A stretch of DNA of 32,000 nt from an uncultured delta proteobacterium. GTDB taxonomy: Bacteria; Myxococcota_A; Polyangia; Polyangiales; Polyangiaceae. The stretch lies in assembly GCA_963826085.1 (NCBI GenBank), contig CAWGVN010000001.1:44962-76961 (forward strand), given 5' to 3'. This document shows, in pieces, positions 9,781 through 23,960 of the stretch (position 1 is the first letter of the stretch; each line of letters begins with the position of its first letter). The position numbers and the translations under genes were made by a program. The notes under the pieces are model-generated. The model was given only the letters and a program-made list of their open reading frames with translations. It was not told where the DNA came from and made no database searches.

Positions 9781-11736
9781 ATGGCATTCTGCCCGCGCTG
9801 CGGAACGGAGAATCCGCCCGCGCAAGCGGCATGCTCCGCGTGTGGCAGCCCGCTGCCGGGCGGCGTGCCGGCAGCGCCGACTCCCGCCGCACCCGCGGGA
9901 GCGAACCCGATGAAGACGATGCTCGGGATGGGAGCCGTCGGGGCGCCGGCCGCGCCGGCGAGCGGCGTGTCGCCCACATGGCCCGACGGGCCCCCCGCAC
10001 AGCCGGCGTCGGGCGGGACGGCGCCCACGTGGCCGGGCGAATCGCCGCCAGCCCAGGCCCCGGCGCAGGCGGCCGGCCAGCACAAGACCATGCTCGGCAT
10101 GGGCGCCGTGCCCGCTCCGGGCGGAGCCCCGCCCGCAGTGCCCGCGGCCAGCCCTGCGCAGGGCCAACCGGCGGGCGGGCTGCAACGCACCATGCTCGGC
10201 ATCGCGCCTCTGGCGCCGCCGGCGGCTGGCGCCGGCGCTCCATCCGCACCCAGCGCGCCGGCTGCCGGCGCCCAGCACAAAACCATGCTCGGCATCGCAC
10301 CGGGACAGCCCGGCCAGCCGCCGACGGCCGCGCATCCCCCGGCGTCGGCCGCGCCCGGTTCGAGTGCGCTGCCTTCGCAGCAGAAGACGATGCTCGGCAT
10401 CGCGCATCCCGGCATCGCACCGCTTGCCCCGACCGCGCCCAAGTCGGCACCCGCCGCGGCGCCACAGTGGACTCCGCCGCCGCCGCAGCCTGCCATGCCC
10501 ACGGCAGAAGACCTCTCGGTTCTTCCGGGACGGCAGCGGCGGCGTGTCCCGGTGGTCGCGCTGCTGGCGATAGCTGGGTTCGTTGTGCTGCTGGTCGGCG
10601 TGGTGGTGATCGCCGTGCTCTGGAAGGGCAGCGGACCCGTGTCGGCCAAGGTCTCGCTCGATGCCCAGAACCACGAGCAGCTCGAGCTCGGCTGCAAGGA
10701 GTGTCCGGACGGTACCCAGGCGGCGCTCGGCAAGGCGAGTACCACCTTCAAGAGCGGTCACGCGGTCCTGCCCGTGGATCGCCCGCTGAAACTCGGCGAC
10801 AACGATCTGCAGATTGCGCTCACGAAGCCCGGACAGACGCGTGCCTCCACCGTGGATCTCACCGTCCCGGTCGACTACCGCGTGCGCGGCGATCTCTCGC
10901 AGCTGTCGAAAAGCCCGCCCGCGCTCAGGGTGATCGTGCAGGCCACGAAAGGCTCGGTGGTGAGCGTCGACGGGAAGCCGCTGGCGCTCGCTCAGGACGG
11001 CACCGCCCACTGCGACATCGACGTGTCCAAGCAGCTGTCCGGCGCGGCCTCCGGCGTGCTTCCGCTGGAGCGCAAGGTTGCCTACAGCGTCAAGGCTTCC
11101 GGCGAAAAGCAGGCCGACACGGGCGAGGTCAAATTCCAGCTCGGAATCGTGCCGCTCGTGATCGATGCGCCGGGTTCGCGCATCATAACAGATGCTCGAA
11201 CTTTCATGCTTGCCGGCCACACCGAGAAGGGTGGCTCGGTCAGTGTCGGCGGTCGGCAGATCACGGTCGACGCGCAGGGGAGCTTTGCCCAGCTGATGAA
11301 CGTCTCGGCAGTGGGGCAGACGACGATCAACGTCCGCGCATCCGCCAAGGACCGCGCGCCGCGGCTGTTCCCTCTGCAGGTCAAGCGGGTGGACAGCCTG
11401 GCCAAAGAGGCGGCGACGTTCGAGAAGCAGGCCACCCAGAGCTACGCCGGCATCTCGAGCGACATCGACACGAAAAAGGGCTGGGCGGTCGTGCTCCCGG
11501 GCAAGGTCGTCGAGTCACGCGTGGACCATCACAAGAGCTACGTACTGTTCGACGTGTCCGCGGGGTGCCAGCGTGCGCCGTGCCTGGCGCGGCTGGTCTC
11601 TGGCGAAGCCGAGAAGCTCGCCAAGGGCGACAAGATCACCGCCTACGGACACATCACCCGCGGCGTGGACGGACCGCGGCGGGGCACGACGATTCCCGAG
11701 GTGGACGTCGATTTCCTGATGAAGGGGCCGCGGTGA
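9781..11736 (+). CDS. Zinc-ribbon membrane protein with KTMLG-motif repeats, one TM helix and a beta-rich extracytoplasmic domain
   Basis: ATG 9781 within track ORF 9577..11736. N-terminus MAFCPRCGTENPPAQAACSACG (CxxC...CxxC zinc ribbon). A Pro/Ala-rich cytoplasmic linker carries five (K/R)TMLG(M/I) motifs. Then RQRRR and a TM helix VPVVALLAIAGFVVLLVGVVVIAVLW, followed by a ~370-aa beta-rich domain. Confidence 0.8.
   Translation: MAFCPRCGTENPPAQAACSACGSPLPGGVPAAPTPAAPAGANPMKTMLGMGAVGAPAAPASGVSPTWPDGPPAQPASGGTAPTWPGESPPAQAPAQAAGQHKTMLGMGAVPAPGGAPPAVPAASPAQGQPAGGLQRTMLGIAPLAPPAAGAGAPSAPSAPAAGAQHKTMLGIAPGQPGQPPTAAHPPASAAPGSSALPSQQKTMLGIAHPGIAPLAPTAPKSAPAAAPQWTPPPPQPAMPTAEDLSVLPGRQRRRVPVVALLAIAGFVVLLVGVVVIAVLWKGSGPVSAKVSLDAQNHEQLELGCKECPDGTQAALGKASTTFKSGHAVLPVDRPLKLGDNDLQIALTKPGQTRASTVDLTVPVDYRVRGDLSQLSKSPPALRVIVQATKGSVVSVDGKPLALAQDGTAHCDIDVSKQLSGAASGVLPLERKVAYSVKASGEKQADTGEVKFQLGIVPLVIDAPGSRIITDARTFMLAGHTEKGGSVSVGGRQITVDAQGSFAQLMNVSAVGQTTINVRASAKDRAPRLFPLQVKRVDSLAKEAATFEKQATQSYAGISSDIDTKKGWAVVLPGKVVESRVDHHKSYVLFDVSAGCQRAPCLARLVSGEAEKLAKGDKITAYGHITRGVDGPRRGTTIPEVDVDFLMKGPR
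9913..10401 (+). repeat. Five dispersed copies of a coding short linear motif (K/R)TMLG(M/I)
   Basis: Copies begin near 9913, 10083, 10186, 10279 and 10384, with shared nucleotide core ac(g/c)atgctcgg(g/c)at. A pair of (S/A)PTWP(D/G) motifs lies between copies 1 and 2. Confidence 0.8.
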
Positions 11737-13865
11737 GCGAGTCTGTCGCGGAGCTGATGATCTGTCCGGCCTGCCGGGCCCGGAACCTCGGCGACGCGCG
11801 CTTCTGCAGCCAGTGCGGGATCCGTCTGGAAACCGGCCCGCTCGACGACGCGGCGCCGGAGTCGCAGGGCGGAGTCGACAGCATGATCAGCCTGGTCGGC
11901 GCCGCCACGCTTGTCGGCGATACGCCGAGCGAAGACGGCACGCGCATGGCCGACCCGCTGATCGGCGTGGTGATCGCCGATCGGTATCGCATCATCGAGC
12001 CGCTGGGCCGCGGCGGCATGGGCGTCGTCTACAAGGTCGAGCACGCACGCATCGGCAAGCTGATGGCGCTCAAGATCCTCACCGGCGAGCTCAGCCGCAA
12101 CGAGGAGCTCGTCGCGCGTTTCAAGCGTGAAGCGCTGATGGCGAGCAAGCTCTCGCACCCCAACACCGTCCAGGTCTTCGACTTCGGAAGCTCGGAGGGC
12201 ATGACCTACCTCGCGATGGAGCTCCTGCGCGGCAACGACCTGGGCCGCATCGTCCGTCGTACGGGGCCGCTCGGGGCCGCGCGAACGTCGCGCATCGTGA
12301 TCCAGATCTGCAGCTCTCTGGCCGAAGCGCACGACCACGACATCGTGCACCGCGATCTGAAACCGGAGAACATCATCATCGTCAGGGGTCAGGCGGGCGA
12401 CGATGTGGTCAAGGTCCTCGACTTCGGTCTGGCAAAGCTCCGTGAATCCAAGGAGCTCGGTGAGGTCACCACGCGCGGCGCGATCGTGGGCACTCCCTTC
12501 TACATGTCGCCCGAGCAGATCCGGGGCGAGGCCGTGGACCCGCGCAGCGACGTTTATTCGCTGGGGGCCTTGATGTACACCTGCCTGACGGCCCAGCCGG
12601 TGTTCGATTCGGCCACGCCGATGGGCATCCTGACCAAGCATCTGACCGAAGCACCTGAAGCGCCGACCCATCGCTTCCCGGCCCTCGGCATCCCGCCGGC
12701 GCTCAGCTCGATAGTGCTCAAGGCGCTGCAGAAGGATCCCGAGCGCCGCTACCAGAGCGTGCGTGATCTGCAGCAGGCACTGGTCGACGAGCTTCGCGGC
12801 GCCGGGCAGAGCAGCGTGGATCTCCTGCTCGACTCGAAACAGATGCGGGAGCTCGCCAGCGCCGACGAGGAAGCAGCGACGCGCGGCGAGATCGAACGCT
12901 ACGAGCGGAGGCTCAAGCGCCGTGGCCAGTACGCGATGGGGGTGTTCGGGCTGGTCATCGTAGGGCTCGGGTTCGGCGGCTACCGGATATGGACTGCGAC
13001 GAGCAACTCCCACGAGTTCTCGGGCACGGAGGTCGAGCCGAACAACTCGCCCGGCACCGCGACGCCGCTACCGTTCGGCAGCGAGGTGCGCGGACAGATC
13101 GGACGGCGGATCGACCGCAACCAGAGCGACCGCGACTTCTACCGCGTGACCGTGCCGTCTGGCACCCAGGCCGTCAGCCTCGAGACGACGGCGCTGCCCA
13201 ACATGGCGCTGTGCACGTTGGTCTACCGGGTCGGCCTCGACACTCCGCTCGGGCGCTATTGCCCGGGCACGCCCGGCCAGGACCTCCGGGTGGACTCGCT
13301 GGAGCTGGATTCGGGAGACTACCTGCTGGCCGTGATGCAGGATCGCGAGCGCTACGCCGAAGAGCCAGCGCCGCCGGTGCTCGAGAACATCTCGGACGTG
13401 TACCGCCTCCAGCTGTCCCCGGCGAAGACGCGCGCGGGCGAGGAGGTCGAACCCAACGATGCGGCCCGCGACGCCAACACGATCAAGCGCGGGCAGTCGC
13501 TTCGCGGCCAGTTCGCGTGGATGCACGACGTGGACTTCGTGTGCGCTGCCCCTGGAAGCGGCGGCGTGCGTTTCGTGGTGGAAGACGCCGTGAACGCGCC
13601 GAGACCCGAGCACGCGGTGCTGCAGATCACGCCCGTCGGCGGCCCGGATGACGGCATTCCGGTGCGCGTGCACGGCAAGGACACGAACTTCACGGCGTCC
13701 GCGCGCGACGTGAAGAGCCCATGGCACGGACCGCAAACGCCGCTCGGCAAGAGCCCGGGCAGCGCCTGCCTCAAGCTCGAGCTCGTGCCCAATCCGTGGG
13801 CACCCACGCCGCATCCGCGAGTCGCACCGGCCGGCAGCGAGGAGTACCTCGTCCATGCGGAGTAG
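11733..13865 (+). CDS. Ser/Thr protein kinase: N-terminal zinc ribbon, Hanks-type kinase domain, one TM helix, extracytoplasmic PPC-like domains
   Basis: The GTG at 11733 overlaps the upstream stop (GTGA); an alternative ATG lies at 11757. Zinc ribbon: MICPACRARNLGDARFCSQCG. Kinase motifs: LGRGGMGVVYKV, MALKIL, HRDLKPENIII, DFGLAK, GTPFYMSPEQ. TM helix: YAMGVFGLVIVGLGFGGYRIW. The ectodomain has two modules opening EVEPNNSPGTATPL and EEVEPNDAARDANTI, plus DRDFYRV and GDYLLAVMQ. The upstream 972 codons of track ORF 8817..13865 are an open-frame artefact. Confidence 0.9.
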   Translation: MSESVAELMICPACRARNLGDARFCSQCGIRLETGPLDDAAPESQGGVDSMISLVGAATLVGDTPSEDGTRMADPLIGVVIADRYRIIEPLGRGGMGVVYKVEHARIGKLMALKILTGELSRNEELVARFKREALMASKLSHPNTVQVFDFGSSEGMTYLAMELLRGNDLGRIVRRTGPLGAARTSRIVIQICSSLAEAHDHDIVHRDLKPENIIIVRGQAGDDVVKVLDFGLAKLRESKELGEVTTRGAIVGTPFYMSPEQIRGEAVDPRSDVYSLGALMYTCLTAQPVFDSATPMGILTKHLTEAPEAPTHRFPALGIPPALSSIVLKALQKDPERRYQSVRDLQQALVDELRGAGQSSVDLLLDSKQMRELASADEEAATRGEIERYERRLKRRGQYAMGVFGLVIVGLGFGGYRIWTATSNSHEFSGTEVEPNNSPGTATPLPFGSEVRGQIGRRIDRNQSDRDFYRVTVPSGTQAVSLETTALPNMALCTLVYRVGLDTPLGRYCPGTPGQDLRVDSLELDSGDYLLAVMQDRERYAEEPAPPVLENISDVYRLQLSPAKTRAGEEVEPNDAARDANTIKRGQSLRGQFAWMHDVDFVCAAPGSGGVRFVVEDAVNAPRPEHAVLQITPVGGPDDGIPVRVHGKDTNFTASARDVKSPWHGPQTPLGKSPGSACLKLELVPNPWAPTPHPRVAPAGSEEYLVHAE

Positions 13866-15090
13866 CCGCTACATGCGCGGTGCGCTGGCCGCGTGCGGGC
13901 TCGTTGCAGCCGCGGCGTGGGCGCGGGCGCAGCCACTGGATCCGACGTTGCCCCAGCAGCGCGTGCTGGGCCTTCCCGCTGCGCCGGCCGCGATGACGCG
14001 CCTCGATCCCGGCCGCACCGGACTCTGCAGGGACCCGCTTCCTACGGCTCCACGCGTGCTGTGGCGCGCGCGCGCGCAGGGAGGCATCGGGCACGCGGTG
14101 CGCGTCGACCGGACTGGCGCGATCGTGATCTCGAGCTCGATTGCGCAGATGGTACAGATCGATCCCCGCGGCAAATCCGCCTGGACGGTGCGTACCGGCA
14201 GCGGCGCTCCGCTCACCTCGCCCGTCATTACCAGCGACGGCACCCGCGTCGTGATTGTCCCGGGTCCGGAGCTCCTGGGCATCAACGCGGCGGGACACCA
14301 ACGGTTCAAACGCGCGCTGCCCGCGACCGGACACACTCCGTCGTCGGTGAGCGCGCTGCTTCCGCTGGCCAGCGGAGGGCTGGCTCTCTCGCTCGGCAAC
14401 CGCGTGCTGGAGGTCGGGCCGCGCGGGCGCGTCATCTCCGTCACGGATGCGCCGGAAACGGTGCAGGCGCTCTTGAGTCGCCGGGGGTCGCTGCTCGTCG
14501 TCACGCAGCGAGGCAACGTGTTGTCCTGGCACCCGCCAGGAGAGGCTTCGCGCGTCGGCAGCTTCGGCGGAGAAGTCAACGGTTGGCCCGTGCTGTGCTC
14601 GCCGCGCAGCCTGTGTGCTTCGGTCGACAATCACCGGCTCGTGGAGCTGGATCTGCAGACCGGGACCCGGCACGTACGTCTCGACGACAGCTCGATCCTC
14701 TTGCTGGGCTCGCCTGCGGTCCGGCGCACGCACGACACCCTGACACCCACCGGGGACGGCCTGCTGCTGGGACACGATGCCACCGGGAAGGAAACGCTGC
14801 GCGTCGCGCTGATCCCCGGCAGTGTGTCACCCGACGGTGGCGTAGGAACGTTGGTTCGACGCGCGACGCTCCCGCCCGTGATCGTCGACGGCGCGGGAAC
14901 GATCGGGTTCTCGCGGCCCGGGCTCGACGCCGGCGTCGTGACGTTGACGGGTGACCTGCGCACCGCGCCCGGCACCGCCTGCGCCGACCCCATAGGCGTG
15001 GCACCAGCCGGCCCCCACCGCATGGTCGTCGCCTGCCGCTCCGGCCTGCTGTGGCTGCTGGGCGACCAGGCGAAGCCCCAGCCGCGCTAG
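13855..15090 (+). CDS. Secreted PQQ-like/BamB-like beta-propeller repeat protein
   Basis: The ATG at 13855 overlaps the kinase 3' end by 11 nt. Signal peptide: MRSSRYMRGALAACGLVAAAAWARA/QP. Repeated short strand units of the type G.I..SS.., DG.RVVIV, G.LLVVTQRGNVLSW and GLLWLLG suggest a propeller. This is a pattern-level call only. Confidence 0.6.
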   Translation: MRSSRYMRGALAACGLVAAAAWARAQPLDPTLPQQRVLGLPAAPAAMTRLDPGRTGLCRDPLPTAPRVLWRARAQGGIGHAVRVDRTGAIVISSSIAQMVQIDPRGKSAWTVRTGSGAPLTSPVITSDGTRVVIVPGPELLGINAAGHQRFKRALPATGHTPSSVSALLPLASGGLALSLGNRVLEVGPRGRVISVTDAPETVQALLSRRGSLLVVTQRGNVLSWHPPGEASRVGSFGGEVNGWPVLCSPRSLCASVDNHRLVELDLQTGTRHVRLDDSSILLLGSPAVRRTHDTLTPTGDGLLLGHDATGKETLRVALIPGSVSPDGGVGTLVRRATLPPVIVDGAGTIGFSRPGLDAGVVTLTGDLRTAPGTACADPIGVAPAGPHRMVVACRSGLLWLLGDQAKPQPR

Positions 15091-15869
15091 TGATAGAGCG
15101 CGGTGAACAGGATGGTGATCGCCCGGATGTTCGCGGTCTGCTTGGGTTCGGTGGATGTGGCTGCGTGTTCGGTGCGCGCGCCGGTGAGCCGAAGCATGCC
15201 GCCCATCGACCACTCGGGCGCGATCCACGCTGCGTAGCCGACCCATAGCCCGGCGCCATAGCCGGTGAACGTCGTGGTGCTGCCGCTGCCGCCCGCGTTG
15301 TCGTCGAGGGTCATGCCGGCGAAGCCCAGCGTGCCGCCCACGTGGAACCCGCCTTTCGGATCGGGGAAACCGTCGATGAATGGACCGAGCGTGCCGAACC
15401 CCAACGTCGCGTTCACGTCCTGCTGTTTGCCGTCGATCTCGAAGCTGGGGTTGGGCGCGTTGTTGCCCAGGAGCGCGCCGCCGATCACCACGCCGGGCGC
15501 CGGCGTACCGCCAATCATCAGATCGAAGGCTCCGCCCCCGCCCGACAGCGTGACGTTGCCCAGACCGTTCTGGCTCACGGTGCTACCGACAAAGCCGCCG
15601 CCCAGGCTCATGCGCAGGTAGAAGCCGGTGTGCATGTGGTAGGTGCGCGCCCGCGGCGGGGGCGGCGGCGGCGTCTCGACCGACATGCTCGCGGGCGGTG
15701 GTGTCGCGGGCGGCGGCGGCGTCGAAGGCGGCGGAGGCGGCGGAACCTCGCGAGCTTCCGCCCCCGGAGCCGTCTGCTGCGCGCGCGCTGGCGAGCCCGC
15801 GAGCAGCAAGCCGACCGCCGCGAACGCCGACAACAAACCGGCCCGAGTCCCAGTGCAGCGCTCTGTCAT
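15087..15869 (-). CDS. Secreted protein with Pro-rich linker and Gly-rich amphipathic beta-strands (small outer-membrane beta-barrel candidate)
   Basis: ATG 15869 (the track ORF opens one codon earlier at a GTG). Signal peptide: MTERCTGTRAGLLSAFAAVGLLLAGSPARA/QQ. Linker: PPPPPPSTPPPPATPPPASMSVETPPPPPP. Alternating strands follow: FYLRMSLGGGF, AFDLMIGG, FHVGGTLGFAG, GAGLWVGYAAWI, MGGMLRLTG, AITILFTALYH at the C-terminus. Confidence 0.6.
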   Translation of the reverse strand: MTERCTGTRAGLLSAFAAVGLLLAGSPARAQQTAPGAEAREVPPPPPPSTPPPPATPPPASMSVETPPPPPPRARTYHMHTGFYLRMSLGGGFVGSTVSQNGLGNVTLSGGGGAFDLMIGGTPAPGVVIGGALLGNNAPNPSFEIDGKQQDVNATLGFGTLGPFIDGFPDPKGGFHVGGTLGFAGMTLDDNAGGSGSTTTFTGYGAGLWVGYAAWIAPEWSMGGMLRLTGARTEHAATSTEPKQTANIRAITILFTALYH

Positions 15870-15927
15870 CACGTCTGAAGGAAGGGTCTGCGCCGCGCCC
15901 GCGTCAAGGCCCCCCGACCAGCAGCGA

Positions 15928-16740
15928 TCAGGGGCGCCCGGTCGGGGCCCGACCGAGCAGCATGTGTCCGTGGACCCACTCGAGCGCGCCCTTCATGCGA
16001 GCGTAGAGCTCCGGGCTCGGAACGGTAGCGGCCAGCGCGTGCGCGCTCGAGCTCGACCCCTGCACCCCCACCAGCGAAGCGTCATCGACCAGCACGTTGT
16101 CCTCCGAGGTCTTCAGGTAGAGGCACGGCTGGGCGGTCATCGGGGAGTGCGAGCCCGTCAGCTGGCACCAGCCGGTCTTGTCCGGCTTGCTCTGGACCGG
16201 CGTCAGGGTCGACAGCACGATGGGCAGCGAGTTGGAGCATTCGATGAGCGTGGCGTTGACGACGTGGCAGTCGCTCTTCGGCGGCGGCTTGATCCACAAA
16301 CTGATGTCGATGTTCTCGTTCGCCGGCGCGGCGGCCTGCCCAAGGAAGTCGGTGCCCTTCATCATCACGCCGCACGCCACGCCGGAGTGACACAGACCGC
16401 CGGTCTCGCGCACGAGGTTCGCCTGCTGCCCCTGCGCGATCGCATACCAGCCGTACTGACCTTGTGCGCCGGTGAACTCGAAGTCGCCGTCGACCATCAG
16501 GTTGTCGATGTCGGTGTGGCCGTAGGGGTTTCGCTGCTCCACGGTGCGGACGCGTTCGGCCGTCTGGGCCGGCGGGACCGACGTCTCTCCGCCGCCGCCC
16601 GACGCATCAGCCGCGTCCGCGCCGCTGTCCGCGCCTGCGCTGCCGCCGGAGCCGAGGGGATTCACGTTCATGTTCCCGGTGCAGGCCACCACGGCCAGCG
16701 GGAACACCGCGGCCAGCGCCAGGATCTTCGTGGGGCTCAT
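15928..16740 (-). CDS. Six-cysteine lipoprotein, copy B (paralog of 18782..19615); jelly-roll/CBM4_9-like opening motif
   Basis: The ATG at 16740-16738 overlaps the stop of the upstream peptidase gene (ATGA). Lipobox: FPLAVVAC. Blocks shared with copy A: QRNPYGHTDIDNLMVDGDFEF, CHSGVACG, SLWIKPPPKSDCHV, LIEC, DKTGWCQL, QPCLYL, LVDDASLV. Confidence 0.8.
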   Translation of the reverse strand: MSPTKILALAAVFPLAVVACTGNMNVNPLGSGGSAGADSGADAADASGGGGETSVPPAQTAERVRTVEQRNPYGHTDIDNLMVDGDFEFTGAQGQYGWYAIAQGQQANLVRETGGLCHSGVACGVMMKGTDFLGQAAAPANENIDISLWIKPPPKSDCHVVNATLIECSNSLPIVLSTLTPVQSKPDKTGWCQLTGSHSPMTAQPCLYLKTSEDNVLVDDASLVGVQGSSSSAHALAATVPSPELYARMKGALEWVHGHMLLGRAPTGRP

Positions 16741-18785
16741 TTGAGGTGCCCCCTCACCCACGCCAGCGCGGCCTCGTACGGAAGGTCCTTGCCCTGCATG
16801 AGCGCCGTCTGCGTGTGGTCCACGATCACGTCCGGCTGGATGCCGTGACCTAGAAGCGCGTTGCCCTGGTAGTCGATGGTGTCGCCGCTCGCCATCTGGA
16901 ACGAGAGCCGCGACCAGTATTGGAACTGGTAGAACGACGAGAACGCGCCAGCAGTCTGGTGCGGTCCGAAGATCTTCACGTCCGGCGCGCCCTTCATGCC
17001 GAGCGGCAACCAGTCGCTGGCCGACCCGTCGCGATCGATGATGAGCGCGACCGGCAGCTTCAGGTCCGGATTGTCGCTGCCGACGTGGTAGAGCGTGCCG
17101 TTGCCCGTCTGGAATATCTGCAGCCCCTCGGCCTGCGTGTCGGGCCCGTCGTAGTCGGCGACCGACATGAACTTGGGACCAATCGAGAGGTCGAACGGCT
17201 TGCGCACCAGCTCCGTGAGCTTTTCCGGTGCATCGATGGTGCCGCCGTTGCCGGCGCGGTGGTCGAGGATCACGCCGCGCGCGTTCTGCCTGAAGAAATC
17301 GATCGAATCCTGGAGGAACTGATCCACCTGCGGGCCGTAGAGCGAGTCCCAGGTGATGCCGTAGATGTCCTCGCCCGGCTTCGAATCGACGACTGCGTCG
17401 CGCCAGTCGTAGAAGCCCGCGTAATGCAGCGAGGTCGCCTCCGGCGAGGGCGGATTCGCCAGGTGATAGGCCGGGCGGTTGTCGCAGTACGCCACCTGGC
17501 CGCCGGGAGGCAATTCGGGCACGTCGGTGACCGGAATGGTCTCGATGGTGTCCGAGCAGGTCATCGTCGAGGAATCGCAGCGGATCACGCTGAAGTTCCT
17601 CGCATAGCTCGTGATGAGGTCGCGCATCGCCTCGACGAAGTCCGCATCGACGTGCGGATCGTCGGCCGCGTGATAGCCCCAGTTCGCGTGCGTGAGCGAG
17701 CGCGCCCACTCGATGGGGTTCTCCCCGTCGACCGCGACCAGGCGGTCGCCCGGGTGCAGCCCCATCGTGTTGTCGGGTCCCGTATAGGCGACCAGCACGT
17801 CCTCGTGACCCGCCGTACTCGGCCAGGTGGAATGCGACAGGTCGCCCTGCCCCTCGACGAAGCAGACACCCAGACGCCGTGGGCTCGTGTGGATGCCAAT
17901 CGCCGAGCTGGTGTCGGTATGCCAGTCGTGCAGCAGGCGGACACCCTGGAAGTAGTCGTTCCAGAAGCTCCACGGCGTCGTCGCCGTCCGCATCTCGTCC
18001 ATCTCGGCTAGCGCGGTGGGCAGATAATGCGTACGCGAGTAGTGCCCGCCGAAGAAATGCTGCACGCGCCCGATCATGTAGTCGACGACGCTGTTCCGGT
18101 AGGCGATGGGCGGCAGCGGGGGCACGTAGCGAGCGCCCTGGCGGCAGCGCTCGGAGACGCACACGCTGTCCGGACCACACACCGGATCGAACGCGCCGAG
18201 ACACGGGCTGCCGGGATCGTAGTCGCCGGCCGGCACGGCCTCGATGGCGTCGACATCCGCCTCGGTGCTGTCGAGCCGCACATAGGCGCGGCTGAGATCG
18301 CTCCCGGTGACGCTGACCGGATTCGACGCGAGCTCCACCCATCCGTCGCTGGTCACGCGCCCGGTGGGGAACATGTACCCGACCTCCGAGTCGCGCTCCG
18401 CCGACGTGTATTCAAACACCGCGCGCGCCGAAGCGCGCCCGTGGCGGACCCAGACGCGGAACACGTACGAGGCGTCGACGCCGGGCAGCGGCAGGTCCAC
18501 GTCGAACGGATCCTGGATGGCGTTGATGTGGACGTAGCGCGAGCCCTCCAGCGCGAGCTCGTCGCCGGGCTCTCCCCCGTGCGTCTCCCAGGCGCAGGTC
18601 TTGTCGCAGGTGACCTGGAAGGTGCCGCCTTCGGCCGTGCTTCCGGAGTCCTCGAACGACTGCACCGCGACCGCAGCCGGATCGAAGACCAGATGCCCTG
18701 CGGGATCGAACGTCGCAGCTCGCGCGACGCCCTGGTGCATCAGCACCACGGCAGCGGCCCCTGGCGCCAGGCTGCGCCAGCTCAT
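16737..18785 (-). CDS. Secreted S41-family-like peptidase with PDZ-like segment, copy B
   Basis: The ATG at 18785-18783 overlaps the upstream stop (ATGA). Weak signal peptide: MSWRSLAPGAAAVVLMHQGVARA. An N-terminal beta domain and a Cys knot (CLGAFDPVCGPDSVCVSERC) are followed by a PDZ-like segment, GLHPGDRLVAVDGENPIEWA. S41 signatures: GVILDHRAGNGGT and VALIIDRDGSASDWLPLGMKGAPDVKIFGPHQTAGAF. Confidence 0.8.
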   Translation of the reverse strand: MSWRSLAPGAAAVVLMHQGVARAATFDPAGHLVFDPAAVAVQSFEDSGSTAEGGTFQVTCDKTCAWETHGGEPGDELALEGSRYVHINAIQDPFDVDLPLPGVDASYVFRVWVRHGRASARAVFEYTSAERDSEVGYMFPTGRVTSDGWVELASNPVSVTGSDLSRAYVRLDSTEADVDAIEAVPAGDYDPGSPCLGAFDPVCGPDSVCVSERCRQGARYVPPLPPIAYRNSVVDYMIGRVQHFFGGHYSRTHYLPTALAEMDEMRTATTPWSFWNDYFQGVRLLHDWHTDTSSAIGIHTSPRRLGVCFVEGQGDLSHSTWPSTAGHEDVLVAYTGPDNTMGLHPGDRLVAVDGENPIEWARSLTHANWGYHAADDPHVDADFVEAMRDLITSYARNFSVIRCDSSTMTCSDTIETIPVTDVPELPPGGQVAYCDNRPAYHLANPPSPEATSLHYAGFYDWRDAVVDSKPGEDIYGITWDSLYGPQVDQFLQDSIDFFRQNARGVILDHRAGNGGTIDAPEKLTELVRKPFDLSIGPKFMSVADYDGPDTQAEGLQIFQTGNGTLYHVGSDNPDLKLPVALIIDRDGSASDWLPLGMKGAPDVKIFGPHQTAGAFSSFYQFQYWSRLSFQMASGDTIDYQGNALLGHGIQPDVIVDHTQTALMQGKDLPYEAALAWVRGHLK

Positions 18786-19615
18786 CGCGCCGCCCTCCAC
18801 GCGCGGTAGGCTCGAAGCGCGGGATTGGGCGGGCGGTTGGTCGGCTTCAGGTACGCCCGCAGGATCTTCTGCATCTGCTGCACAGCCGCCACGTCGCGCG
18901 GCGCCGGCGGACCGTAGGCGATGTAGGGCTGGGCGCCTGTGGGCGCCGCCTGCACCACGGCGTCGTCGATGAGCGCCACCTTGGCCCCGCTGAACTTGGC
19001 GTCGAAAAGCATGCACGTGGCAGACGAGCGCGCCGCAGCAACGGCCTCGACATGACACCAGCCACTCGTGTCCGGCTTGCCATCGGCGTCGACGAGCGGA
19101 ACGTCGGGCTCGCCGGACGCGCGACAGTCGAAGAGCTGCACCTGCACTTCGGAGCACTTGCCCGACGGCGGCTTGACCCACGCGCTGGCGCTGATCCCGG
19201 CGCCGCTCGGGGACACGCCGATGGCGGTAGCCTTGTTGTTTGCCTTCAGGTAGCCGCACTTCATGCCGCTGTGGCACTCGGCGCCGATCCGGATCTCCGG
19301 AAACGTCCCCACGCTGGTGAAGAACGAAGCGTCGACCCACCCGTACTCGTCGCCGAAGGCGGTCTGCCACTCGAAGTCCCCGTCCCAGAGCATGTTGTCC
19401 GTCGCGGCAATGTCGCCGTAGGGGTTGCGCTGGAAGACGGTGCGCTTGACCTCCGTGGGCGCGGGCGGCGTGCCCGGCTTGTCCAGCGGGCCTGGAACGC
19501 CCGTGTGCCGACCGGCGTCGCGCGTCCCGTGCGCGAGCGGATTGACCCGGCTCTGGCTGCCGCAGGCCATCACGACCGTGCCGACCAGCAGCGAGAAGAC
19601 CAGCGCCCGCTTCAT
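18782..19615 (-). CDS. Six-cysteine lipoprotein, copy A (paralog of 15928..16740)
   Basis: The ATG at 19615-19613 overlaps the upstream stop (ATGA). Lipobox: GTVVMAC. Shared blocks: QRNPYGDIAATDNMLWDGDFEW, CHSGMKCG, SAWVKPPSGKCSEV, LFDC, DTSGWCHV, ATCMLF, LIDDAVV. The C-terminal tail is basic and helical: AAVQQMQKILRAYLKPTNRPPNPALRAYRAWRAAR. Confidence 0.8.
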   Translation of the reverse strand: MKRALVFSLLVGTVVMACGSQSRVNPLAHGTRDAGRHTGVPGPLDKPGTPPAPTEVKRTVFQRNPYGDIAATDNMLWDGDFEWQTAFGDEYGWVDASFFTSVGTFPEIRIGAECHSGMKCGYLKANNKATAIGVSPSGAGISASAWVKPPSGKCSEVQVQLFDCRASGEPDVPLVDADGKPDTSGWCHVEAVAAARSSATCMLFDAKFSGAKVALIDDAVVQAAPTGAQPYIAYGPPAPRDVAAVQQMQKILRAYLKPTNRPPNPALRAYRAWRAAR

Positions 19616-21693
19616 GGCTTGAGCTCCGATCGCACCCAGGCGAGCGCGGCGTCGTAGACCGTGTCGTGTCCGGCGAGCAGATCGGACTGCAGCGGTACGA
19701 CCTTGACGTCCGGCTTCACGCCGTGGCCGTTGAGCATCTCGCCGCTGGCACTGACCGTATCGCCGACTGCGATCGAGTAGCCGATCCCGAGCCAGTAGGC
19801 GAACTGGAAGCGCGTGGAAAAACCGCCGGCCGTCTCGTAGGGCGCGAAGATGCGCGCCTTGGGGGCACCCTTCACGCCGAGCGGCAGCCAATCGCTCGCG
19901 GATCCGTCGAGCGTCGTGAGCAACGCCACCGGAACGTCGAGCTCGGGATTGGACCCGCCGGCGAATTCGGTCTCGCCGAGCTGGTCCAGCTTGTTGAACA
20001 GCGCGAGGCCTTCCGCTGCGTTCTCTGGCCCCTGCTGTTCCGAGGTGTCGCGGAACATGAAGACATCGAGTGGCGTCGGCTTGCGGACGAAGTCCCAGAT
20101 CTTCTGCGGGCCGAGCGATGTGCCGCCGTAGCCGGTGCGGTGGTCCAGAATCACGCCGCGCGCCTTCTGCCGCCACAGCGACACCGCCGCGTCCAGGTCG
20201 GGTCCTACGTCGCCCTGCCCCCCCGTCCCGGTGACGTACAGCGAGCCCCACTGCAGACCGTAGATGGCTTCGGTCGGGTTGCTCTCGTCAGCCAGCCCCG
20301 AGAAGGTGCCACCCGAGGAGTGATGGGCACCCGGAACGTGGAGGAAGGGACGATTGTCGCAGGAAGCGCCCCCGTTCGTGCCGGGCGGAGACGGCGGAAG
20401 ATCGCTGATCGAGATTGTCTCGGGCGTGGACGCGCAGCTGCCGCTGTTCGAATCGCAACGCAGCACCTGGATGTGGTCGGCAAAGCGCGCGATGAGCGAC
20501 CCCAGCCGCGACGCGTCCTCTGCGTGCGTGTTGTGGTTGGAGGCCGTCCAGAATCCGCTGTCGACACCGATCAGCGACCGCGCCCATTCGATCGGCTGCT
20601 GGCCGTCGACGCTGACCAGGCGGTCGCCGGTGTGCAGACCGAAGGTGTTCACGTCGCCAACGTGCGAGACCAGCACGTCCATGTAACCGGGGGTGGACTT
20701 TGCCGCCGTCTGCGATGCGTCCGCCTTGCCCTCGATGAAGCACACGCCGATGGGCTTGGGATTGTCGATCACGTAGCCCGCGAGGTCGCTCTCCTGGGTG
20801 TGCCAGTCGTGCAGCCTATGAACAGCCGCCTTGAAGTGCTTCCAGAAGTCCCAGGCGTCGCTGGCCGAGCGCATCGCGTCGATCTCGGCGCGGGCGTTGG
20901 GCAGATCACGGCGGCGATTCTCGAACGGACCGAACAGGTAGTGGAAGCGCGCGTCCAGGTAGCTGACGAGCTGGTCGCGATAGTCGACAGGCGGCAGCGG
21001 CGGAACCTCGGCGGTCATGTTGCGGCACAGGCCCCACTGGCACTCCTGGTCCGGCCCGCATGACAATGGATCGCCCGCACCCGCGCATGCGTTCTCGGCG
21101 ACGGGCGGCCCCGAGACGGAAATCTCGATCGCGTCTACGTCCGCACCAACCGGCGAGAAAAGGCCGACCTGGACAATCTTGGCGCTCGACACATCGAACG
21201 AAAATGCGTCCGTCGCCAGCTCGTACCAACCGTCGCTGGTCATCCGGCCCGTCGGGAACAGCTGGCCGTACTGGTCGATGCGCCCGTTCTCGTAGCCGGC
21301 TTCCACGGTCGCGATCACCTCGCCGCGGGCCCACAGGGTCACGCGGTAGGTGCCTGGTGTGGTCAACGTGACCGGGATGTTGATGCCCTGGTACTGCGCG
21401 ACGTGCAGCACATGACTGCCTTCAATCGCCGCCGGGTCCTTGCCGATGTCCAGCGGGGGCCCGGCGTCCACCGCGCCGCCCGCGTCCCCGCCGTCGGGCG
21501 CCCCGGCGTCGACAGCGGGAGGGGCTGGTAGGTTCGGATCTCCCGGCTCGAAGCCGAGGGTCCACGCCGCGTGCGGGTCGAGCACGAGCATACCGGCCGG
21601 ATCGAAGCTGGCTGCCGACGCGACGGTCGAGCACGACAGCAAGGCCAGCGCGGCAAGGCCGCTGACCATCGAGAAATGGCGGCGCAAAAACAT
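19612..21693 (-). CDS. Secreted S41-family-like peptidase with PDZ-like segment, copy A
   Basis: ATG at 21693 (MFLRRHFSMVSGLAALALLSCSTVASA/AS); the track ORF extends 16 codons further upstream. It is collinear with copy B: FDPAGMLVLDP, CAGAGDPLSCGPDQECQWGLC, GLHTGDRLVSVDGQQPIEWA, GVILDHRTGYGGT, VALLTTLDGSASDWLPLGVKGAPKARIFAPYETAGGF, ALAWVRSELKP. Confidence 0.8.
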   Translation of the reverse strand: MFLRRHFSMVSGLAALALLSCSTVASAASFDPAGMLVLDPHAAWTLGFEPGDPNLPAPPAVDAGAPDGGDAGGAVDAGPPLDIGKDPAAIEGSHVLHVAQYQGINIPVTLTTPGTYRVTLWARGEVIATVEAGYENGRIDQYGQLFPTGRMTSDGWYELATDAFSFDVSSAKIVQVGLFSPVGADVDAIEISVSGPPVAENACAGAGDPLSCGPDQECQWGLCRNMTAEVPPLPPVDYRDQLVSYLDARFHYLFGPFENRRRDLPNARAEIDAMRSASDAWDFWKHFKAAVHRLHDWHTQESDLAGYVIDNPKPIGVCFIEGKADASQTAAKSTPGYMDVLVSHVGDVNTFGLHTGDRLVSVDGQQPIEWARSLIGVDSGFWTASNHNTHAEDASRLGSLIARFADHIQVLRCDSNSGSCASTPETISISDLPPSPPGTNGGASCDNRPFLHVPGAHHSSGGTFSGLADESNPTEAIYGLQWGSLYVTGTGGQGDVGPDLDAAVSLWRQKARGVILDHRTGYGGTSLGPQKIWDFVRKPTPLDVFMFRDTSEQQGPENAAEGLALFNKLDQLGETEFAGGSNPELDVPVALLTTLDGSASDWLPLGVKGAPKARIFAPYETAGGFSTRFQFAYWLGIGYSIAVGDTVSASGEMLNGHGVKPDVKVVPLQSDLLAGHDTVYDAALAWVRSELKP

Positions 21694-21851
21694 GGGAAGC
21701 GTGAAGCGAGTGTCCTCGTACCACGCGTTATCCGGCACCACCAGACGCGGCGGAGGCCTGAAAAACAGCTCGAAAGACTGCGAGCGCCGGTGCCGGAAAA
21801 TGGCGACTGCGCTGGATCATGGGGACCCTGGCGGTAGCGCACGCCGATGCG

Positions 21852-21857
21852 TATACT
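21852..21857 (+). promoter_or_regulatory. Possible -10 element (TATACT) for the Fe-S carrier gene
   Basis: tatact sits in a locally AT-richer patch about 70 nt upstream of the ATG at 21926. The best -35 candidate 17 nt upstream (tggcgg) is poor. Confidence 0.25.
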
Positions 21858-21925
21858 CTTGGGTGACCAGACACCGGTCGTGCGGGCGAAGGACTGCACG
21901 ATCCGCACGGAGGACCAGCATTCCG

Positions 21926-22249
21926 ATGATCTCGATAACCACGCTTGCAGCAGACAAGGTCAAGGACATCGCCCAGGCGGAAGGCCTCGAGGGCCAGGGC
22001 TTGCGGCTGCGCGTCATCGGAGGCGGCTGCGCCGGCTTCCAGTACGACCTGTACTTCGAGGACAAGCCGACGGACATGGACGAGACGTTCGAGTCCCACG
22101 GCGTGCTGCTCTACGTGGACCCGCTGAGCTTCCAGTATCTCGACGGCACGGAGATCGACTACGTGGACGGCGTCCATGGGTCCGGCTTCAAGTTCGGCAA
22201 CCCGAACGTGACCGGCACCTGCGGGTGCGGCTCGTCCTTCCAGGTCTGA
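21926..22249 (+). CDS. erpA: A-type iron-sulfur cluster carrier/insertion protein (ErpA/IscA/HesB family)
   Basis: Internal ATG of track ORF 21440..22249, preceded by ggagga at 21909-21914. The 107-aa product carries the family signatures LRLRVIGGGCAGFQY and the C-terminal TCGCGSSFQV, with the three conserved Cys. Confidence 0.88.
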   Translation: MISITTLAADKVKDIAQAEGLEGQGLRLRVIGGGCAGFQYDLYFEDKPTDMDETFESHGVLLYVDPLSFQYLDGTEIDYVDGVHGSGFKFGNPNVTGTCGCGSSFQV

Positions 22250-23581: not shown

Positions 23582-23959
23582 GTCGCAGCAGTCCAGGTGA
23601 TCGCTCGTGCTTGTCGCGAGAGGAAAGTCCGGGCTCCGCAGGGCAGGGTGCCGGGTAACGCCCGGTGAGGGAGACCTCGAGGAAAGTGCCACAGAGAATA
23701 GACCGCCCGGACCGGCTCGCCCGCTCCGGGCAAGGGTGAAACGGCGGGGCAAGAGCCCACCGCGCAGCCGGTAACGGCTGCGGCACGGCAAACCCCACCC
23801 GGAGCAAGGCCGCGTATAGGGGCGTTCGAGGGCTGCCCGCCCGAGCCCCAGGGTAGGCCGCACGAGGCGTCCGGTGACGGGCGCCCAAGATGAATGATCG
23901 CCAGCTCCACCGGGGCGACCGGGTGGAGCGACAGAACCCGGCTTACGGACAGCTGCGAC
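23582..23959 (+). ncRNA. rnpB: RNase P RNA, bacterial type A
   Basis: Universal blocks are present in order: GAGGAAAGTCCGGGCTCC, GGGTGCCGGGTAACGCCCGG, GAAAGTGCCACAGA, AAGGGTGAAA, CCCACCCGGAGCAAGGC, AGATGAATGA, ACAGAACCCGGCTTA. P1 is formed by 5' gtcgcagcagtcc (23582-) pairing with 3' ggacagctgcgac (-23959) with one mismatch. Ends are good to about 5 nt. Confidence 0.92.
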
Positions 23960-23960
23960 C

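Follow-up and report, generated by a model that had tools for sequence, protein, structure and literature searches.

A run of four consecutive genes in an uncultured delta proteobacterium of the family Polyangiaceae raises the question of whether a secreted peptidase of family S41 and a lipoprotein encoded directly behind it form a dedicated pair. The genes lie on the minus strand at 15928-21693 of the 32,000-nucleotide stretch analysed here (contig CAWGVN010000001.1, positions 44,962 to 76,961; hereafter the window, G+C content ~70%) and alternate between large and small products of 693, 277, 682 and 270 amino acids, which we call bigA, smallA, bigB and smallB. The combination of an S41 protease and a lipoprotein partner is already known as a theme; in Prc-NlpI and CtpA-LbcA it governs the hydrolases of the cell wall and the quality of the envelope. 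New in this locus are the family and modelled fold of the partner, the missing Ser-Lys dyad, the strictness of the translational coupling and the ancient arrangement in two modules. Comparison across genomes and metagenomes established the large and small genes as an obligately linked pair, and we propose, at a probability of roughly 0.45, that each pair is a two-component envelope protease module in which the lipoprotein would act as a dedicated anchor, positioner or gate. Literature searches for the pair returned no relevant paper.

The gene cluster in the window

The four genes and the three junctions between them are located as follows:

19612-21693, minus strand: bigA, secreted S41-like peptidase of 693 amino acids (open reading frame and translation)
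18782-19615, minus strand: smallA, lipoprotein of 277 amino acids
16737-18785, minus strand: bigB, paralogue of bigA with the same architecture, 682 amino acids
15928-16740, minus strand: smallB, paralogue of smallA with the lipobox V-A-C20-T, 270 amino acids
19612-19615, minus strand: ATGA shared by the stop codon of bigA and the start codon of smallA
18782-18785, minus strand: ATGA shared by the stop codon of smallA and the start codon of bigB
16737-16740, minus strand: ATGA shared by the stop codon of bigB and the start codon of smallB

A first, sequence-only reading of this DNA had described the four alternating genes and their ATGA junctions, and the open reading frames confirmed both at the positions it gave. 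Independent public gene calls contain four identical products of equal lengths, all without a name. The paralogy claimed for the large pair (42% protein identity, E=1e-161) and for the small pair (32%, E=9e-25) also held, as did the moderate nucleotide identity, which is 56% and 51%, respectively, over codon-aligned sequences. All shared motifs quoted in that reading are present, although W(V/I)KPP...C is approximate, smallB having four residues before the Cys and not three. A scan of 14900-22100 for promoters and terminators gave no signal exceeding the shuffled expectation.

Linkage of the large and small genes

In order to follow the pair beyond the window, one genome per species was scanned with the small protein as seed, which gave 44 loci, and metagenomes were scanned with the large protein as seed, which gave 79. 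The genome loci come from metagenome-assembled genomes (MAGs) assigned to Polyangiaceae, Polyangia or 'Myxococcales', from one organism in culture, Minicystis rosea DSM 24000 (locus L016, CP016211, ~11.60-11.62 Mb), and from one 2.9-kb 'Acidobacteria' contig; all loci with a named source belong to Polyangiaceae or related Polyangia except the contig binned as Acidobacteria. Of the 43 genome loci that have upstream DNA (locus L036, which has none, was left out of the count), 42 carry a large gene immediately upstream of the small one, and the complete bigA-smallA-bigB-smallB set is present in 32 loci. With the large gene as seed, a small gene follows 69 of the 71 large genes that have at least 450 nt of downstream sequence in the metagenome loci, and the two misses are scoring artefacts, one an overlap beyond the threshold and the other a duplicate match.

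The junctions themselves were counted over the 44 related loci plus the window. The start of the small gene overlaps the stop of the large gene in frame at 75 of 76 large-to-small junctions (45 ATGA, 24 GTGA and 6 TTGA), the last one being TGATG, and a 4-nt overlap is found at 28 of 35 small-to-large junctions. This overlap has been kept despite a mean protein divergence of ~50% for the large and ~63% for the small proteins. The proposal that homologues of the small protein adjoin S41-like genes with a 4-nt overlap was therefore borne out with either gene as seed. A recurrence over 44 genome and 79 metagenome loci is far more than chance would give, the two genes are obligately linked, and they are almost certainly co-translated. 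When all open reading frames of the 123 loci were clustered, no third conserved gene was found; the other families occur in at most 16 loci each and reflect local synteny.

Two sequences depart from this pattern. The only small gene without a large gene upstream lies on the 'Acidobacteria' contig (L012, JABFRY010000039.1, 1-2915); its product is 40% identical to smallA, and the upstream open reading frame encodes a TonB-dependent receptor or outer-membrane-like protein of 659 amino acids that ends in ...LDLRFRF. The contig could be mis-binned or chimeric, or it could carry a true solitary homologue outside Myxococcota. A protein of 953 amino acids from a Minicystis sp. MAG (P0110, annotated as 'S41 family peptidase') was considered as a fusion of a large and a small protein and rejected: the frame shifts ~25 codons before the stop of the large gene and runs into the signal peptide of the small protein, so that it is most likely a frameshift or assembly error or a pseudogene.

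Duplication of the module

A neighbour-joining tree of 153 large proteins (midpoint-rooted, without bootstrap) splits into two clades, one with all 42 first-position genes and the other with all 42 second-position genes, bigB included. The clades coincide exactly with gene position, so that the whole two-gene module underwent a single, ancient duplication before these lineages split, and the order A-then-B has been kept since. The view that the duplication is old and that both copies were retained is thereby upheld. Single modules, carried by several other loci, occur in both the A and the B clade, and 1.8-2.8 kb of other DNA lies between module A and module B in L014 (10807-13641) and L022 (8262-10091); because of this intervening DNA and of the single-module loci the modules are separable, and either can occur alone.

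Family and fold of the large proteins

The Pfam family PF03572 (Peptidase_S41) was matched by bigA with 24.4 bits and by bigB with 31.2 bits, both barely above the curated cut-off of 24 bits. It was also matched by 49 of the 49 aligned large-protein homologues (best E=7.5e-11), 10 of which matched Pfam PDZ_6 as well. A profile built from these 49 proteins retrieved from the PDB the CtpA of H. pylori (E=1.7e-4 for the S300A/K325A/Q329A mutant chain 9ku3 and 2.9e-4 for the same protein in 9ku0 and 9jr1), the Parabacteroides S41 structure 4l8k (E=1.2e-3) and the PDZ domain of RseP (E=0.014); the weaker matches comprised RseP PDZ domains, IRBP and CPAF. The single bigB sequence gave spurious matches only when searched against the PDB.

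The AlphaFold model of bigA (predicted local distance difference test score, pLDDT, 91; predicted template modelling score 0.89) consists, after the signal peptide, of a beta-sandwich (~28-197), a mini-domain with four Cys (203-225), a helical domain of three helices (236-293), a PDZ domain (~300-411), a conserved coil insert (413-480) and an S41 catalytic alpha/beta domain (497-693). A Foldseek search of the PDB with this model placed mature CPAF (3dor) first with E=3.8e-15, followed by D1P (D1 C-terminal processing protease), 4ghn, CtpA, CtpA-LbcA, Prc with its adaptor, CtpB, 8vcb and 4l8k, so that the S41 matches span E-values of 1e-15 to 1e-8. The template modelling (TM) score for 4ghn, from Bacteroides, was 0.72 when normalised to the target. 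Taken together with the PF03572 matches, the model establishes the assignment of the large proteins to peptidase family S41, with an inserted PDZ domain and a predicted S41 fold, in agreement with what had been read from the sequence. Some public records automatically annotate them as 'S41 family peptidase'.

Two segments of bigA deserve separate mention. Between the PDZ and catalytic domains, amino acids 445-475 (window ~20269-20361, minus strand; equivalent present in bigB) form a conserved segment, C-D-N-R-P-x-x-H-x5-H ... E, which has no regular secondary structure at a pLDDT of >90. C445, D446, R448 and E475 are invariant, H452 and H458 nearly so, and the segment could be a metal site, a lining of the active site or an internal regulatory segment as in CPAF. 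The signal peptide of bigA carries a twin-arginine-like L-R-R-H-F-S (amino acids 4-10, window 21664-21684) that occurs neither in bigB nor in the family consensus and is probably incidental.

Predicted catalytic residues of the large proteins

Four motifs of bigA bear on the question of how, and whether, the large proteins cleave their substrates:

19888-19905, minus strand: G-S598-A-S-D-W; bigB equivalent at 17010-17027
19816-19833, minus strand: T-A-G-G624-F-S, counterpart of T-F-G-K-G-S in Ser-Lys S41 peptidases; bigB equivalent at 16938-16955
20797-20811, minus strand: H-D-W-H298-T, directly before the PDZ domain; bigB equivalent at 17916-17930
20137-20148, minus strand: L-D-H518-R, within ILDHRxGxGGT, counterpart of LDLRxNxGG in the S41 oxyanion-loop region

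In profile alignments to 9ku0 and 9ku3, S598 is matched with the catalytic Ser of H. pylori CtpA, which 9ku3 carries in mutated form. This nucleophile, the Ser of the S41 motif G-S-A-S-x-(E/D), is invariant in all 49 sequences. The catalytic Lys of the S41A Ser-Lys dyad lies in a T-x-G-K-G motif ~25 residues past the Ser. According to the same kind of alignment, its position is taken by G624 in bigA and by Ala in bigB, and a Lys is found there in 0 of 49 homologues from both paralogue clades (Ala in 32, Gly in 17). Judged by these residues, the large proteins are not Ser-Lys enzymes of the Prc/CtpA type, and in this respect the sequence-only reading, which compared them to Prc and CtpA, needs correction, the closest structure being that of CPAF. 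All 49 sequences have H298 and D296, within a family pattern L-H-D-[W/G]-H-T. H518 is invariant too, where CtpA has Leu and 4l8k has Val, and so are S600, D601, S626 and D662, the last of which lies 64 residues past the Ser.

A His most likely serves as the general base, as in CPAF and tricorn, with H298 and H518 as candidates; we infer this His-assisted mechanism because the Lys is absent and because CPAF, the best structural match, works without one. Tricorn has a Ser-His arrangement similar to that of CPAF, likewise without Lys, and its His lies directly before its PDZ domain. In PMC8787135, which cites Huang et al. 2008, CPAF's active site is given as a water-mediated triad of His105, Ser499 and Glu558. 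Poorly characterised S41 lipoproteins of Bacteroides fragilis, including Q5LIA5 (PDB 8vcb), were labelled by fluorophosphonate probes (bioRxiv 10.1101/2025.01.15.633241), and the labelling of Q5LIA5 shows no more than that one structural relative about which little is known has serine hydrolase activity.

The small lipoproteins

Neither smallA nor smallB, nor any of 34 aligned members, matched a family in Pfam or NCBIfam. At E<=1, Pfam families of carbohydrate-binding modules (CBMs) were matched by 0 of the 34 members, no tetratricopeptide repeat (TPR) was found in Pfam searches with the window pair and these members, and a profile search of PDB sequences with the small family gave nothing relevant. 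The expectation that the pair is not an annotated and characterised family was thus correct, the small family having neither a Pfam or NCBIfam model nor a name. A word-indexed search with the small protein returned 51 matches, of which every one with a named source is from Myxococcota, and when 1.84 billion representatives were searched exhaustively with a profile, 325 small-family clusters at 50% identity were obtained, 297 of them at E<=1e-10. Their length is mostly 250-300 amino acids, and the few outliers look like mis-called starts or fragments.

The lipobox of smallA reads M-A-C18-G and is followed by a Pro/Ala/Gly-rich linker of ~40 amino acids, a beta-sandwich of jelly-roll type that contains the motifs DGDFE and DDA as well as conserved pairs of Cys, and two C-terminal helices. 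With the lipobox Cys present in 180 of 181 small-family sequences, the small proteins are, by their sequence signature, lipoproteins. The six conserved Cys counted from the sequence do exist in both smallA and smallB in addition to the lipobox Cys, but only four of the six are invariant family-wide (98-100% of 181 sequences). In the same alignment, the residues conserved at 98-100% are the lipobox Cys, R58, G67, N74, D78-G-D80, E82, W93, C114, G117, C120, C154, C187 and D217, with F81 and P65 at 97% each.

The model of smallA is confident for residues 106-277 only, that is, for the beta-sandwich and the two helices that follow (239-277), and residues 19-105, which comprise the linker and the most conserved segment, are poorly modelled. 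Foldseek matched residues ~106-235 to the jelly-rolls of CBM16 (2zew), CBM4-2, CBM22, CBM61 and MAM at E ~3.5e-4 and a target-normalised TM score of ~0.5. Strand motifs of the types xDGxFE (N-terminal) and DDx (C-terminal) are typical of such modules, the DGDFE...DDA pattern marking their first and last strands and a structural Ca2+ site. The suggestion of a CBM4_9-like beta-type lipoprotein in place of a TPR protein was accordingly right about the lipoprotein, the conserved Cys and the predicted beta-type fold; no CBM profile was matched, and the likeness to CBM4_9-type modules holds at the level of the modelled fold only.

Within the poorly modelled part, amino acids 58-105 of smallA (window ~19301-19444, minus strand; RNPxG...N.LWDGDFEW...YGW) have a pLDDT of <50, compared with >88 in the rest of the domain, which may reflect a shallow alignment or a segment that folds only against a partner. 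A catalytic Lys supplied in trans by the C-x-S-G-x-K-C loop of the small protein was considered and rejected: the position holds Lys in 105, Arg in 53 and other residues in 23 of 181 sequences, and Ala in smallB. Homology of the small protein to the N-terminal sandwich of the large one is unproven, with hhalign giving E=0.11 (probability 0.5%) and, for larger alignments, E=0.012 (3.7%), neither of them significant. The profile alignment of smallA 134-277 with bigA 110-276 is nevertheless collinear (W-x-R/K strand, (S/A)DGW, VDA/DDA, PP, helix, P, helix), though again not significant.

Proposed mechanism and alternative explanations

In the mechanism that we favour, the large protein would be exported, probably via Sec, and would be rich in disulfide bonds. 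It would act as a serine peptidase of S41 fold that retains the nucleophilic Ser and the oxyanion loop, lacks the Ser-Lys dyad and uses a His as base. The small protein would be made from the same mRNA in a fixed proportion through the start-stop overlap and would be anchored to the membrane by its lipid via the flexible linker of ~40 residues, its jelly-roll possibly being stabilised by Ca2+. By binding its cognate protease it could tether, position or gate the peptidase at the membrane, and so do by an unrelated fold what NlpI does for Prc and LbcA for CtpA. Modules A and B presumably have different substrates. What we infer in this scheme is how the large protein is exported, that it is catalytically competent, which residue is its base, that the two proteins form a complex and that the small one acts as anchor or adaptor.

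Several observations count against this proposal. Linkage and translational coupling would fit the role of an inhibitor, a chaperone or a substrate as well as that of an adaptor, and to our knowledge the S41 adaptors described so far are TPR proteins whose genes do not adjoin the protease gene. A profile of bigA 228-335, searched against PDB sequences in order to place the catalytic His, found no S41 match, and the segment 58-105 of smallA is the best-conserved part of the small protein yet is modelled with low confidence. Support for cognate pairing from mirror trees is weak: after removal of the shared phylogenetic signal from the distance matrices, partial correlations are 0.45 and 0.30 for cognate large-small pairs versus 0.19 and 0.06 for non-cognate ones, but paralogue pairs co-vary alike (0.48 and 0.36).

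The alternative to which we give the most weight, although we regard it as unlikely, is a protease with a cognate inhibitor or 'immunity' lipoprotein that blocks it in the periplasm until export or activation. Small beta-protein inhibitors encoded beside the protease gene are known from the periplasmic AprI/Inh of serralysins and the staphostatins of staphopains, and CPAF is a regulated zymogen. The strict adjacency, an overlap implying 1:1 production, a separate small paralogue for each protease paralogue and the compact beta-domain of the modelled small protein would all suit an inhibitor, as would the faster evolution of the small proteins (mean distance 0.63, versus 0.49 for the large ones), which is often seen in cognate inhibitors. 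However, the small proteins match no known inhibitor family in sequence or fold; DGDFE, DDA and the Cys pairs resemble structural jelly-roll and Ca-site residues and not a reactive loop, and a long, lipid-anchored tether is better suited to positioning a protease than to neutralising it stoichiometrically. To a dedicated substrate or pro-protein, with for instance a PDZ-guided removal of the two-helix tail, we give a small chance. Many S41 enzymes with a PDZ domain are C-terminal processing peptidases and the small protein does have a separate helical extension at its C-terminus (amino acids 239-277), but the very ends of the small proteins at the C-terminus differ among members in both length and sequence and are basic in most cases, whereas the PDZ domains of Ctp and Prc usually bind non-polar tails, and an enzyme substrate that is made stoichiometrically by translational coupling would be unusual.

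Both proteins might instead be degradative factors, extracellular or on the cell surface, that act on one common target, a polysaccharide or the cell wall, and are co-expressed without forming a specific complex. The CBM-like jelly-roll of the small protein and the N-terminal beta-sandwich of the large one, which would bind this target, lend themselves to the idea, as does the fact that Polyangiaceae are known as macromolecule degraders; we nevertheless consider it improbable, as none of the 34 members matched a Pfam CBM, the 123 loci have no conserved neighbour that encodes a glycoside hydrolase or another degradative enzyme, and the near-perfect overlap and the A-A/B-B pairing exceed what co-expression needs. 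That the large proteins are non-catalytic binding proteins of S41 fold like IRBP, and the pair a structural or binding complex, is very improbable: the catalytic Lys is indeed absent from 49 of 49 sequences and IRBP is among the weak profile matches, but the invariance of the Ser, the GxGGT loop, H298 and H518 in both ancient clades is hard to explain without catalysis, and CPAF and tricorn work without Lys. The evidence is also compatible with an inhibitor or a substrate; the shared-target and pseudo-enzyme explanations are less likely.

A more far-reaching version of the partnership, likewise rather improbable, would make the small lipoprotein an obligate subunit of a split protease, the S41 enzyme without Lys being inactive by itself and switched on or gated only by the docking of its cognate jelly-roll lipoprotein. 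Amino acids 58-105 of smallA might then be the docking element, and the small protein may have been derived from the N-terminus of the protease itself, as the non-significant collinear similarity would suggest. If true, this would be a new architectural class, a partner-dependent envelope protease with two ancient specificities, A and B.

If the pairs form complexes, the logic of an 'S41 protease plus dedicated lipoprotein' would have arisen independently with a wholly different partner fold, and it would have done so on a CPAF-like core without Lys and become fixed as a translationally coupled pair. In either case two unnamed protein families are defined, and a cultured host is available in Minicystis rosea DSM 24000.

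Comparison with known systems

Prc-NlpI of E. coli (5wql) and CtpA-LbcA of P. aeruginosa (8sxe) resemble the modules described here in combining an S41 protease with an inserted PDZ domain, a location in the envelope and, likely, a dedicated lipoprotein partner, which in those two systems is an adaptor of the outer membrane. The partner here is predicted to be a disulfide-bonded jelly-roll, whereas theirs is a TPR protein. The genes here adjoin and overlap; neither prc and nlpI nor ctpA and lbcA are known to be linked. Because those adaptors are TPR proteins with unlinked genes, the likeness would be functional only. The large proteins also lack the catalytic Lys, and they have a beta-sandwich at the N-terminus and a mini-domain rich in Cys as additional parts.

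CPAF (Chlamydia CT858; 3dor, 3dja), the best structural match to bigA over ~560 aligned columns, shares the S41 fold without a Ser-Lys dyad, but the identity is only ~13%, and CPAF, which an intracellular pathogen secretes as an effector, is activated by autoprocessing and has neither a lipoprotein partner nor an N-terminal sandwich. An acidic residue lies ~59 positions past the Ser in CPAF, compared with the invariant D662 at Ser+64 here, and the equivalence of H298, which precedes the PDZ domain, or of H518 to His105 is putative. The S41 structures from Bacteroidetes (4ghn, 4l8k and 8vcb, the last being B. fragilis Q5LIA5), whose functions are either recent findings or not yet assigned, are close in the catalytic domain, with a root-mean-square deviation of ~3.6 Å for 4l8k and 8vcb, and 4l8k likewise has no Lys at the aligned position (TGGGSG). 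Unlike the large proteins, they are predicted lipoproteins themselves, have no separate partner, carry another N-terminal domain and come from another phylum. As for the small protein, residues ~106-235 of smallA have the modelled jelly-roll fold in common with CBM4_9, CBM16, CBM22 and MAM modules, from which it differs in being a stand-alone, lipid-anchored protein with four invariant Cys, a C-terminal helical hairpin and no Pfam CBM match.

Neighbouring genes

Directly downstream of the module, one further gene is encoded on the same strand:

15087-15872, minus strand: putative beta-barrel protein of 261 amino acids (Pfam OMP_b-brl, 18.9 bits, below the cut-off of 28.7)

The gene starts 58 nt downstream of the module if ATG is taken as its start, the distance noted in the sequence-only reading, and 55 nt downstream if GTG is. 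It was considered as a third component and rejected, as its homologues are found behind the module in no more than six loci, all from close relatives; in the window it is possibly co-transcribed with the module. The other neighbours (a Ser/Thr kinase, a BamB/PQQ-like protein, an IscA/ErpA-like protein, a sigma factor, RNase P RNA and others) are syntenic in close relatives only. The Ser/Thr protein kinase (11706-13865, plus strand) has a zinc ribbon at the N-terminus and is extended at the C-terminus by a long stretch, and its end is overlapped by 11 nt by the start of the BamB/PQQ_2-like gene (13855-15090, plus strand). Both genes converge on the module and are syntenic downstream of it in ~10 related loci. 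On its other side, a full-length class A bacterial RNase P RNA (23585-23960, plus strand; Rfam RF00010, 274 bits) explains a cluster of spurious open reading frames at that position.

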